DNA from: an uncultured archaeon
Lineage (GTDB): Archaea > Asgardarchaeota > Lokiarchaeia > Sigyniarchaeales > SOKP01
Assembly (NCBI GenBank): GCA_964486045.1
Contig: CAZALK010000002.1
Location: 256,001 to 320,000 of the forward strand
Direction: 5' to 3'
DNA: 64,000 nt
In this document: positions 14,556 to 26,717 of the stretch, piece after piece
Position numbering within the stretch: position 1 is the stretch's first letter
How the letters are laid out: the number at the start of each line of letters is the position of its first letter
The notes under the pieces: model-generated
Databases searched by the model: none
The model's input: the letters and a program-made list of their open reading frames with translations, nothing else
What the model was told of the DNA's origin: nothing
Position numbers and translations under genes: made by a program

Positions 14556-15365
14556 TTAAGATATTTTATTTTTATTTTCTCTATTTCCTCGTTTTATAAT
14601 TTCTTTAATAAAATAAGTTGCAACCATATTAGCCTTAGCACCTGAACCAAAACCTGCATCATATCCTAGCTCTTTTGCCAATTCATTACTTATTCTTGCT
14701 CCACCACATATTAAAATTACTTTATCACGTATTTCTTCTGCTTCTAATAGTTCTACTAAATTAGTTAAATTCTTTACATGAATATTTTTTTGGGTAACTG
14801 TTTGAGACACCAGTAATACATCTGCTTTTAATTCTATAGCCTTTTTTACAAATTCTTCATTTGTTATCTGGCTTCCGAGATTATAAGTTTCAATCATTTC
14901 AAATCTTTCAAGCCCATAATGACCCGCGAAGCCTTTCATATTCATAATAGCATCAATACCTACTGTATGAGCATCTGTACCTGTTGATGCCCCAAGAATT
15001 ACAATTTTCCGCTTAAGGTTTTTTTTTATGAGTTCATTTATTACTTCAATTGACAAAGTTTCTACCTCAACAGATTCTGCTTGAATTGTTGTATAATCAA
15101 CTGTATGATCTATACTGCCATACACTACAAAAAATGTAAAATCTTTATCTAAGGAGCTATGATAGGCTACAGTTGGATCTTTTAATCCCATCTTTTTTGC
15201 TAACTCTTTAGCTGCTACAACTGCTTTTTCATCATTTTCAATAGGAAGCGTAAAACTTAATTGAACTTTTCCATCGTTCATCGTATCGCCATAAGGTTTA
15301 ATTTTTGTTAAATCGAGATGTTGATCAAATTCCCTTTTTTCAGTCGAATATAATCCCCCACCCAT
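14556..15365 (-). CDS. kamE: Lysine 5,6-aminomutase beta subunit (cobalamin-binding)
   Basis: KPYGDTMNDGKVQLSFTLP, DAHTVG B12 motif and NMKG PLP lysine. Confidence 0.95.
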   Translation of the reverse strand: MGGGLYSTEKREFDQHLDLTKIKPYGDTMNDGKVQLSFTLPIENDEKAVVAAKELAKKMGLKDPTVAYHSSLDKDFTFFVVYGSIDHTVDYTTIQAESVEVETLSIEVINELIKKNLKRKIVILGASTGTDAHTVGIDAIMNMKGFAGHYGLERFEMIETYNLGSQITNEEFVKKAIELKADVLLVSQTVTQKNIHVKNLTNLVELLEAEEIRDKVILICGGARISNELAKELGYDAGFGSGAKANMVATYFIKEIIKRGNRENKNKIS

Positions 15366-15366
15366 A

Positions 15367-16947
15367 TTAATTCCCTCCTTTTATTAAATCATTTATCATA
15401 ATTTCCATAAATGGATTATAATATTCTTCCTTTTTTTGAACTACCCCATCCATCCCCTTACCCCCATCTGTAGGTCTTTTAATTCCCGCGAAAATACCTT
15501 TTTCAATAGTCGTAAATAGTCCTTGTTTTTCAATTTCCTTTAGCAAATTGTAAGCATTATTAATGACTTCATTAGCTCTTTTTTCTATTACTCCACCTTT
15601 CTTAAAAATGATTTCTTCACTTATAGATTTCATATTATTAAAAATATATTTAGCGTTTTCTATCGATAGTGCTCTATCAGCCATAAAGGGGGTGTGTATT
15701 GCCTCTGTCAACATACCTAGGAGATGAATCCGTTGGTTAGTCATAATTGTAATCATATTGAATAGTGCATCTTGAATATGGCCCTTGAAGATATTTCCAT
15801 TCATAAATTTTGTCGGAGGCATATATTTAAGGGGAGCGTTAGGAAAAATCTCTCGTGCCATTTGGGCTTGGGCAAGTTCATACAAAAAGCCATTCTCCAA
15901 ATCAGGATTCATTTCAAAAGCATGTCCTAGCCCCATAAGTTCCTCTTTTAACCCTGCGAGTAAGGCAAATTGTTCATTAATAAATTCTGAAGCGAGAACA
16001 GTATGCGCCGCATCAAATGCATCAGCAGTAGTTAAATAGTTATCTTCACCAGTATTAATTGTTATTCCTGCATATGCATTTATCATTCTTGAAAAATACT
16101 GATCAACAATCGTTCTTTTCATATTGATATCACGAAATAAAATACCATAAAGGGCGTCATTAAGCATCATATCAAGCCTTTCAAATGCTCCTATTACAGC
16201 AATTTCAGGCATACACAAGCCAGAGCAATAATTGGTTAACCTGATGTATCGTCCTAATTCTTCACTAACTTTATCCAATGCCGTTCTCATTAATCGAAAG
16301 TTCTCCTGAGTAGCATATGTTCCCCCAAATCCTTCTGTTGTAGCACCATAAGGAACATAATCAAGTAGACTCTGTACAGTAGATCTAATTACAGCGATTA
16401 TATCTGCTCCTTGACGTGCTGCAGCCTGAGCCTGAACAATGTCTTCATAGATATTTCCCGTTGCTACAATAACATAAATAAGAGGTCCATCCTTTTCTCC
16501 ATACTTAGTAATTAATTGATTTCTTTTGCTTTTATTGAAAGAAATTTGCTTCAAATTTTCTTGAGCAATTAATTTTATTTTTGCCTTTATTTCTGAAATA
16601 TCTTCTAAAGGAAGATCTACTAGATCCAATTCACCTCTACTAACTTTTTCAGCAATCTCTTGAGGTGTAAGATTAGTTTGTAATATAGCATTCCCAATAT
16701 ATAGTGCTACTCCAACTCCCAAATTGTTTTTAATGTTATCAATTACAACGTTTGGTAAGGGAACATCAAACTCATCTACACCATCAATACCAAAGAATCT
16801 ACACACAGTCCTCTCAACGGTTGTAGTAGTATATTGATCTATAAATTTTTGAGTATCTAAAGCAATATTTTTTGCTGATTCTCTTGCTTTACTTACAGTT
16901 GAAAAATCTAAATTTAACTTACTTTCTTTTTCCATCATAATTTTCAC
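15367..16947 (-). CDS. kamD: Lysine 5,6-aminomutase alpha subunit
   Basis: VATGNIYED, YVPYGATTEGFGGTYATQEN, NYCSGLCMPE, GEDNY and MLTEAIHTP motifs. Confidence 0.95.
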   Translation of the reverse strand: MKIMMEKESKLNLDFSTVSKARESAKNIALDTQKFIDQYTTTTVERTVCRFFGIDGVDEFDVPLPNVVIDNIKNNLGVGVALYIGNAILQTNLTPQEIAEKVSRGELDLVDLPLEDISEIKAKIKLIAQENLKQISFNKSKRNQLITKYGEKDGPLIYVIVATGNIYEDIVQAQAAARQGADIIAVIRSTVQSLLDYVPYGATTEGFGGTYATQENFRLMRTALDKVSEELGRYIRLTNYCSGLCMPEIAVIGAFERLDMMLNDALYGILFRDINMKRTIVDQYFSRMINAYAGITINTGEDNYLTTADAFDAAHTVLASEFINEQFALLAGLKEELMGLGHAFEMNPDLENGFLYELAQAQMAREIFPNAPLKYMPPTKFMNGNIFKGHIQDALFNMITIMTNQRIHLLGMLTEAIHTPFMADRALSIENAKYIFNNMKSISEEIIFKKGGVIEKRANEVINNAYNLLKEIEKQGLFTTIEKGIFAGIKRPTDGGKGMDGVVQKKEEYYNPFMEIMINDLIKGGN

Positions 16948-25462: not shown

Positions 25463-25469
25463 AGTTTTT

Positions 25470-26717
25470 TCACTTCATCATTTTCTTACATTCATTTAAA
25501 GATTCATTAATCATTTCTGCTGCATAATCTAAATCATTATCTGTATGTCGATAACAAATATACCCATGATGGAATGGTTGGAGAAATATTCTACGACGGA
25601 TTAATTGTCTGTAAAATTCTTCTCGTAACTTTTTGTAGAGATTATGAGAATCGCGTTTAAAAGTAATATAAGGCATCCAGGGTTCACCTGTGTAAACACA
25701 TGGAACGCCACTATCTTCTATTATATTTTTAACGTTTTTAGCAAATCTATTTCCATTCTCCTTGATTTTATCTAACACATTTTCACGTTCCATTATTGCT
25801 ATTGTTTTAAGAGCTGCAATTTGTGCAAGACTATTCGGGAAAAAAGTAGAGCTAAGAAATACATTTTCAACTAGTTCATCCATAAACTCTTTTTTACCAG
25901 CAAGTACACCAATAGGATAACCATTCGCCATAGCTTTCCCGAAAGTAGCTAAATCGGGGATAATACCCGAAATTTTCTGAAATCCACCCAGATCTACACG
26001 GAACCCCGTCCGTATCTCATCATAAATTAAGAGGGAGCCATAATTATTAGTAATTTCACGAACACCTTCGAGAAATCCATTTTTAGGCATCTCTACTTCA
26101 TGTCCACCGGGATGATTAATCGGTGTAAGAATGATGGCAGCGACATCATTACCATGTTGATTCATAAGATGCTTGATTTGTTCTAAGTTATTATACTCAA
26201 ATTCTATAACATCCTCATATAATTTTTCTGGTATTCCGCCTTTTTGTTCGACACACCAATCATGCCAACCGTGATAACCACATCGCAATATTTTTGTTCT
26301 ATTTGTATAGCTTCTAGCAACACGAATTGCTGAAGTTGTAGCATCAGAACCCATCTTAACAAAAACCATCTTCTCAGCACATGGGATCAATTGTCTTAAT
26401 TTTTTAGCTAATAGATTTTGTACTGGCTGAGTTAGAGACATGCAAAAACCTTTTTCTTTTATTTGGTTAATAACTGCGTTATCAATTTCCTCTTCTCTAT
26501 GACCAATTATTATAGGTCCGTATGCACACAACATATCTAAATATTCATTTCCATCAACATCAATAACCTTTCCCCCTTTAGCTGTCTCGAAAAAAATTGG
26601 ATATTCACCTTCCACGAAATTGTAAGGTCTTCTAATACCCAATATTGCCCCTGGAATTAATCCAAGTGCTTCATTATACAGATTAAAAGTATTGTCAAGT
26701 GATAATCTTTTGGACAT
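25470..26717 (-). CDS. kat: Class-III PLP aminotransferase, probable 3-aminobutyryl-CoA aminotransferase
   Basis: GIRRPYNF..GEYPIF, YHGWHDW, DEIRTGFR and FGKAMANG motifs; heads a lysine fermentation cluster that lacks kal. The specific call rests on recalled family similarity and context. Confidence 0.65.
   Translation of the reverse strand: MSKRLSLDNTFNLYNEALGLIPGAILGIRRPYNFVEGEYPIFFETAKGGKVIDVDGNEYLDMLCAYGPIIIGHREEEIDNAVINQIKEKGFCMSLTQPVQNLLAKKLRQLIPCAEKMVFVKMGSDATTSAIRVARSYTNRTKILRCGYHGWHDWCVEQKGGIPEKLYEDVIEFEYNNLEQIKHLMNQHGNDVAAIILTPINHPGGHEVEMPKNGFLEGVREITNNYGSLLIYDEIRTGFRVDLGGFQKISGIIPDLATFGKAMANGYPIGVLAGKKEFMDELVENVFLSSTFFPNSLAQIAALKTIAIMERENVLDKIKENGNRFAKNVKNIIEDSGVPCVYTGEPWMPYITFKRDSHNLYKKLREEFYRQLIRRRIFLQPFHHGYICYRHTDNDLDYAAEMINESLNECKKMMK

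Follow-up and report, generated by a model that had tools for sequence, protein, structure and literature searches.

A probable Kat-type lysine fermentation gene cluster in the chromosome of a Lokiarchaeia Asgard archaeon

The window analysed here is a stretch of 64,000 nucleotides from an uncultured archaeon (assembly GCA_964486045.1, contig CAZALK010000002.1, positions 256,001 to 320,000 of the forward strand), and it includes a gene cluster at positions 14,556–26,717 for enzymes of anaerobic lysine fermentation. The eight co-oriented genes that an earlier note on this DNA had listed, i.e. a kat-like aminotransferase gene, a CoA-transferase gene, kce, kdd, kamA, kamB, kamD and kamE, are all present, on the minus strand (Table 1). 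KamE, KamD, KamB, KamA, Kdd and Kce each score above their curated NCBIfam equivalog cut-offs, their genes are clustered and the Pfam assignments agree, which bears out the earlier description of a B12-dependent lysine fermentation cluster and makes it radical S-adenosylmethionine (SAM)-dependent as well. Cofactor motifs were found in KamE (DxHxxG), KamA (CxxxCxxC), Kce (HxH) and the aminotransferase (FGK). Leaving inserted genes aside, the pathway genes are separated by gaps of 1–123 bp (kce-kdd, 8 bp; kamB-kamD, 14 bp; kamD-kamE, 1 bp), and the G+C content is even across the region, at 0.30–0.35. The cluster very probably represents a chromosomal set of genes for the Kat variant of lysine fermentation, in which the aminotransferase Kat acts in place of the ammonia-lyase Kal, in a Lokiarchaeia Asgard archaeon.

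In the proposed pathway, the first four steps are assigned by curated family membership: KamA would convert L-lysine to β-lysine; KamDE, using adenosylcobalamin and pyridoxal phosphate (PLP) and kept active by KamB, would convert β-lysine to 3,5-diaminohexanoate; Kdd would oxidise and deaminate the latter to 3-keto-5-aminohexanoate; and Kce would combine this product with acetyl-CoA to give acetoacetate and 3-aminobutyryl-CoA. By orthology to the characterised enzyme, Kat would then transfer the amino group of 3-aminobutyryl-CoA to 2-oxoglutarate, yielding acetoacetyl-CoA and glutamate. Genes elsewhere in the genome point to the later steps, and comprise three glutamate dehydrogenases, 19 thiolase-family matches, five 3-hydroxyacyl-CoA dehydrogenases (one in the window, at 34695–35537) and three Etf pairs. 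Glutamate dehydrogenase may regenerate 2-oxoglutarate and thiolases may cleave acetoacetyl-CoA to acetyl-CoA; alternatively, the 3-hydroxyacyl-CoA dehydrogenases and Etf systems may reduce acetoacetyl-CoA towards butyrate. The acetoacetate half of the pathway would require a CoA donor, for which the CoA-transferase encoded between kat and kce is a positional candidate in a sub-lineage. According to established chemistry (Perret et al., 2011; PMC3149608), two acetoacetyl units are generated by the Kat route, along with a second NAD(P)H via glutamate dehydrogenase, such that lysine could be converted wholly to acetate where hydrogen or formate is removed by a partner, and partly to butyrate otherwise. 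The Kal route is redox-balanced, producing acetate and butyrate, whereas the Kat route could send all carbon to acetate with a second pair of reducing equivalents, which would suit a hydrogen- or formate-transferring syntroph.

The assignment of the aminotransferase has to be weighed against the possibility that it is HemL or another class III aminotransferase, in which case the pathway would go no further than 3-aminobutyryl-CoA, or the cluster would instead function in β-lysine biosynthesis. Automated annotation favours the latter type of assignment: homologues of the window protein are named ‘glutamate-1-semialdehyde aminomutase’ or ‘aspartate aminotransferase family’, and its top NCBIfam models are those of HemL, while no curated Kat model was found among NCBIfam (NF052390 is an unrelated efflux protein). 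All of the HemL scores are below cut-off, however (TIGR00713, 276 versus 527 bits), and are equalled by that of the characterised Kat on the same model (271 bits); a separate true HemL is encoded elsewhere in the genome (C2:53325–54584; 594 versus 527 bits). The reference Kat was recovered via both primers published for CLOAM0809 (Perret et al., 2011), which delimit an open reading frame of 414 amino acids exactly, from start to stop, in three anaerobic-digester metagenome contigs. In genome contigs, the forward primer matched just twice, by chance (Patescibacteria and Chitinophagaceae), and neither site has an aminotransferase. The window aminotransferase is 64% identical to this primer-bounded Cloacimonas Kat over 414 residues without a gap and has the FGK motif in common with it; for comparison, the two Kats of Perret et al. 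(2011) share >65% identity.

A search of 1.84 billion representative proteins with the window Kat gave a top match of 561 bits and 59% identity, followed by short fragments (248–325 amino acids) and then by the next full-length representative, at 352 bits and 44% identity. In a maximum-likelihood tree, the only one built among the pathway enzymes and one in which the bacterial members carry no taxon names, the Asgard Kats are monophyletic (support 100/96) and sister to the Cloacimonas Kat within a Kat clade supported at 100/99; the genome's own HemL falls across the root from this clade, so that the grouping with HemL which the earlier note had named as a refuting outcome is not seen. The gene also fills the position of kal beside kce, and Kat and Kal do not co-occur in any of 251 sampled genomes. 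On these sequence criteria the window aminotransferase is an orthologue of Kat, not HemL, as the earlier note had anticipated in proposing the Kat variant, and assignment to HemL or another class III aminotransferase is very improbable. Since automated annotation gives the gene one of the two names above, the Kat step is easily overlooked. The lack of kal noted earlier for the window extends to the whole genome (99% complete), where the best match to the Kal model NF052388 is a YciA-like thioesterase (22.9 versus 160 bits).

The sample of 251 genomes was drawn from across the phylum, with Kat orthologues called at E ≤ 1e-100 and Kce by its equivalog cut-off. Kce exceeds the cut-off in 41 genomes, all from one order; Kat is present in 29 of these and Kal in 11, and the remaining one lacks both. 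Over the whole sample, Kat orthologues occur in 30 genomes and Kal in 11, so that Kat is the commoner form among the Kce-bearing genomes. No Kat was detected outside the one order in this sample, though some source names of close homologues read ‘Thorarchaeota’ or ‘Hodarchaeota’. Whichever of the two genes is present adjoins kce directly, in the same slot in different species: the congener G171 (L035), for example, has kal at the same locus and with the same flanking genes as kat. In the sister family, the closed genome G259 (4.32 Mb) encodes Kal without Kat in a layout identical to that of Promethearchaeum syntrophicum MK-D1. The cluster and both flanks are syntenic in >20 genomes of the order, closed genomes included; the conserved flanks are the carbamate kinase (arcC) and ornithine aminotransferase genes at one end, and an open reading frame for 526 residues (orf526), NAD-kinase-like and QueG-like genes and AOR at the other end. 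The cluster is inherited within one order. The restriction to this order and the 64% identity to the bacterial enzyme fit a putative old transfer from bacteria, in line with the horizontal acquisition suggested earlier, but the monophyly and synteny of the Asgard Kats would place any such transfer before the order.

The host is identified as an Asgard archaeon of the Lokiarchaeia type, in agreement with the earlier assignment, by two full-length actins (421–441 bits) and by Kat and CoA-transferase homologues at 84–92% identity in metagenome-assembled genomes (MAGs) named Promethearchaeota or Lokiarchaeota and in the Loki's Castle metagenome. That the cluster is bacterial DNA, wrongly assembled or binned with an archaeal genome, might be suspected from the genome's contamination estimate (7.8%) and from a pathway that is typical of bacteria. 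The G+C content is uniform, however, the contig is 337 kb long, and the cluster lies between the same flanks in many genomes of the order, some of them closed. The actins, the Asgard-named homologues and the order-wide synteny together exclude a bacterial chimera for practical purposes, a refuting outcome the earlier note had allowed for, and we regard this explanation as having hardly any likelihood.

Lysine fermentation as such is already known in Asgard archaea, in its Kal form, and the Kat form is a known bacterial variant that is new to this lineage in the literature searched. Imachi et al. (2020; PMC7015854, Supplementary Table 4) list, with their expression values, the genes for ‘Lysine degradation’ in MK-D1, among them kamA, kamD, kamE, kdd, kce, kal and those for an AtoAD-type transferase, enoyl-CoA hydratase and Bcd/EtfAB; the lysine cluster of MK-D1 includes a MutS2 gene that corresponds to KamC (PMC7015854). 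The earlier view of the route as a bacterial one is therefore not supported; for Asgard archaea, it is just the Kat form that is unreported in the literature searched. No paper tying Kat or 3-aminobutyryl-CoA to Asgard archaea was found in our literature search, in which the Asgard lysine pathway appears only in Imachi et al. (2020); a putative Kat without the remaining pathway has been noted in Thaumarchaeota (PMC8397731).

Comparison with MK-D1, an archaeon of the same order whose pathway is transcribed in culture, reveals the same kamE-kamD-kamB-kamA-kdd core together with kce. In contrast to the window, with Kat and neither Kal nor KamC, MK-D1 has Kal, a MutS-like KamC between kamD and kamB, an AtoAD-type transferase and Bcd/Etf. 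The Kat variant described for ‘Candidatus Cloacimonas acidaminovorans’ and for a Bacteroidetes contig from a digester (PMC3149608) resembles the window in having a HemL-like class III aminotransferase for kal alongside kamA, kamDE, kdd and kce, and Cloacimonas, like the window organism, is a predicted syntroph. The host in the present case is archaeal, however, and the window kat heads the operon near kce, whereas in Cloacimonas kat lies beside a thiolase gene, apart from the rest of the pathway. Acetoacetate activation by AtoAD has been demonstrated in Cloacimonas, whereas here no AtoAD-like enzyme is recognisable and a family III CoA-transferase is present in the operon. With the classical route of Fusobacterium and Clostridium (kamA, kamDE, kdd, kce, kal and atoAD; PMC3149608) the window pathway shares steps 1–4 and the dependence on B12, PLP and radical SAM chemistry, but the Kat step would be a transamination rather than an ammonia elimination; as a consequence, the route would bypass the direct formation of crotonyl-CoA and lose butyrate as a built-in electron sink. 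The Kat form hence predicts that lysine yields acetate and not butyrate, and that its fermentation depends on the removal of hydrogen. Asgard archaea serve as models of the host from which eukaryotes arose, and present scenarios of eukaryogenesis give a central place to their syntrophic metabolism of amino acids; use of Kat by most sampled genomes of the order with the pathway would mean that extra reducing equivalents can go to a partner, a refinement of metabolic reconstructions.

Several observations weigh against this reading of the cluster as a Kat-type fermentation pathway. KamC, the ATPase partner of KamB, was not found in the genome, the best match (210 versus 300 bits) being a MutS-like frame of 980 amino acids on another contig, which leaves the reactivation of KamDE without explanation. 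Among 151 genomes of the order, a KamC above cut-off is present in 8 of the 14 that belong to the sister family, in 2 of the 131 of the window's family and in none of the 52 congeners. The genome-wide search for kal and atoAD that the earlier note had called for, besides finding no kal, returned three family I CoA-transferase pairs, which score 25–35 bits against AtoAD/ScoAB cut-offs of 128–315, leaving the acetoacetate without a recognisable activating enzyme of the AtoAD/ScoAB type. The best model for KamA (AblA) also takes in lysine 2,3-aminomutases of compatible-solute synthesis. Finally, kal and kat occur together in a single lysine cluster of G264 (L073, C1:3062000–3081900), a closed genome of 6.04 Mb from the sister family; kat adjoins kce there, and kal lies at a distance of 4 kb. 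The two genes are therefore not strictly alternative. This arrangement may represent an intermediate state in a swap between kat and kal.

The family III (CaiB/BaiF) CoA-transferase (hereafter CoAT) is the sole recurrent extra gene in these clusters. It begins 7 bp downstream of kat in the window, and in congeners it overlaps kat (often at the stop codon) or abuts it. CoAT orthologues occur in 9 of the 151 genomes of the order, in six congeners exactly between kat and kce, and the same gene order is seen on at least five metagenome contigs (L040, L041, L076, L077 and P0125), whose Kats are 71–88% identical to that of the window. The closest solved structure is that of SUGCT (PDB 9br6; 381 bits), and the best equivalog is the corresponding succinate-glutarate CoA-transferase model (NF052585). 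SUGCT shares the fold family with the window CoAT and is its best-scoring characterised relative, but the window protein is far under the equivalog cut-off (408 versus 750 bits) and its genomic context differs. CoAT copies with 75–77% identity are also present in Deltaproteobacteria MAG contigs (L050, L052 and L053) beside a bacterial HU gene; the neighbours of CoAT in L050 and L051 are AOR, Fer4, FAD_binding_4 and CCG genes. Two further Asgard genomes carry copies near TauE and unrelated genes. The CoAT tree is incongruent with the Kat tree, and in its midpoint-rooted drawing the bacterial copies are nested among archaeal ones, an arrangement suggestive of a recent inter-domain transfer, in either direction.

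Two explanations for this gene have to be considered. CoAT may be the enzyme that activates acetoacetate, transferring CoA from an acyl-CoA to give acetoacetyl-CoA and replacing AtoAD in the sub-lineage, much as the earlier note had suggested. Its spacing from kat, the retention of the kat-CoAT-kce order in congeners and metagenome contigs despite the divergence of their Kats, and the lack of an AtoAD/ScoAB-like family I transferase in the genome are consistent with such a role. Its nearest characterised relatives, however, shift CoA between dicarboxylates or hydroxy-dicarboxylates, close copies occur in the unrelated contexts described above, the majority of Kat clusters have no CoAT, its tree does not follow that of Kat, and CoAT genomes hold more family I transferase matches (3–5) than do Kat congeners without CoAT (0–2). 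Activation of acetoacetate by CoAT is on this evidence possible, but we would not call it the expected outcome. CoAT might instead belong, with the luciferase-like (LLM) oxidoreductase gene where that is present, to a mobile accessory module that occupies a variable slot and acts on a substrate unrelated to lysine. Both the kce-kat and the kdd-kamA junction are hot spots for insertions, LLM is present in just 2 of the approximately 12 CoAT-bearing clusters seen, and close CoAT orthologues are found outside lysine clusters and in bacteria; an exact position after kat, with overlapping or nearly overlapping frames maintained across lineages with divergent Kats, would nevertheless be unexpected for a neutral passenger. 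A module of this kind is a plausible explanation that we likewise rate at somewhat under an even chance.

A more specific proposal, which we consider speculative and rather unlikely, is that the SUGCT-like CoAT, in some members together with the F420-type LLM, was recruited into the kat-kce operon of a Lokiarchaeia sub-lineage to handle the acetoacetate released by Kce, acting on it directly or after its reduction to 3-hydroxybutyrate by LLM. The 3-hydroxybutyrate option draws on the substrates of known family III enzymes, since carnitine and hydroxymethylglutarate are also 3-hydroxy acids. If correct, the direct option would represent the first family III 3-oxoacid CoA-transferase, and either option would make the lysine fermentation complete without AtoAD and adapted to the syntrophic transfer of hydrogen. 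The operon-embedded CoAT is in any case a modest lead for enzyme discovery. The idea that CoAT stands in for a lost family I transferase was dropped, because the CoAT genomes hold more, not fewer, family I matches. As a separate observation, a family III copy is missing from several Kat-type congeners (G246, G228, G216, G132 and others), which also have at most one match to family I CoA-transferases; acetoacetate activation is thus unaccounted for across the genus.

Table 1. Genes of the lysine cluster and the genes inserted in it (window coordinates; scores in bits)
Gene or product	Coordinates	Strand	Model scores and motifs
kamE	14556-15365	-	NF052385, 392 versus cut-off 280; DAHTVG (DxHxxG) from residue 131
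kamD	15367-16947	-	NF052384, 912 versus cut-off 600
kamB, lysine 5,6-aminomutase reactivase subunit	16962-17996	-	NF052386, 403 versus cut-off 210
kamA, lysine 2,3-aminomutase (radical SAM, PLP)	18120-19358	-	TIGR03820, 598 versus 525; CSMYCRHC (CxxxCxxC) from residue 124
RdhA/QueG-like Fe-S protein, between kdd and kamA	19501-20616	+	TIGR02486, 65 versus 160; TIGR00276, 48 versus 200
kdd, L-erythro-3,5-diaminohexanoate dehydrogenase	20617-21660	-	NF052381, 269 versus cut-off 200
kce	21669-22502	-	NF052387, 435 versus cut-off 382; HLH (HxH) from residue 46
DUF5615 gene (toxin-antitoxin-like pair with DUF433)	22553-22906	-	PF18480, 54.6
DUF433 gene (toxin-antitoxin-like pair with DUF5615)	22910-23146	-	PF04255, 79
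LLM (luciferase-like) oxidoreductase, F420-type by nearest subfamilies	23299-24150	-	PF00296, 183
Family III (CaiB/BaiF) CoA-transferase (CoAT)	24275-25462	-	PF02515, 465 (model positions 1-366 of 366)
kat, class III aminotransferase, 415 amino acids (orthologue of 3-aminobutyryl-CoA:2-oxoglutarate aminotransferase, by sequence)	25470-26717	-	PF00202, 180; FGK PLP-lysine motif at 259-261

The LLM gene, the DUF433/DUF5615 pair and the RdhA/QueG-like gene were not mentioned in the earlier note, nor was the absence of KamC. The subfamily scores of LLM are below cut-off (TIGR03560, 170 versus 231 bits; TIGR03619, 154 versus 167 bits). CofH, encoded in the genome, exceeds its cut-off (448 versus 374 bits), which implies that the organism can make the F420 chromophore. 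A copy of LLM with 78% identity is found at the same position in contig L076; none was found in 130 other genomes of the family, nor in CoAT clusters other than that of L076. The L076 copy overturned the idea that LLM is unique to the window genome, and a recent duplication of the second LLM gene of the window (38011–38859) was rejected because the two are just 36% identical. The DUF433 and DUF5615 genes, 3 bp apart, lie between LLM and kce; the same pair is present between CoAT and kce on the P0125 contig, and DUF5615 alone, 79% identical, in L033. The stop of the RdhA-like gene abuts that of kdd. Counterparts at the same position were identified in L040 (76% identical by blastp) and L041 (a Fer4_16 gene of 366 amino acids), and in none of the other clusters examined; a QueG-like paralogue of the gene is located at 30166–31281. 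The RdhA-like gene is a lineage-specific insertion rather than a core part of the cluster, and LLM and the DUF433/DUF5615 pair are likewise sporadic insertions. Depending on the genome, the kce-kat and kdd-kamA junctions contain acyltransferases, a ZIP transporter, a toxin-antitoxin pair, the RdhA-like gene or a block of seven genes. A SAM-dependent methyltransferase of 235 amino acids is encoded between kce and kdd in most clusters of the family, of both Kat and Kal types (L033:12819–13526, with the same position in L027, L028, L034, L036, L040–L045, L076 and L077), and is absent from the window.

The orf526 reading frame (27170–28750, minus strand) has no family match and a coiled-coil-like composition rich in K, E and L. 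It adjoins kat or kal in nearly every cluster of the family, at 65–89% identity, and is absent in the sister family. The possibility that it is a divergent KamC was rejected: it has no similarity to the KamC of the sister family, no Walker A motif and no hydrophobic segments, in addition to its coiled-coil-like composition. Just upstream of the lysine cluster, at 9280–13240, are genes for ornithine carbamoyltransferase, carbamate kinase and ornithine aminotransferase; conservation of the arcC-ornithine aminotransferase flank in congeners marks the neighbourhood as one of amino-acid catabolism. Downstream, the region 31341–39000 includes AOR, Fe-ADH, the 3-hydroxyacyl-CoA dehydrogenase gene mentioned above, a CobW/MeaB-like GTPase gene (35603–36319) and the second LLM gene. 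Two HEPN/nucleotidyltransferase pairs (13373–14373 and 38939–39740) bracket the whole region, and similar pairs are found inside the cluster in L076.

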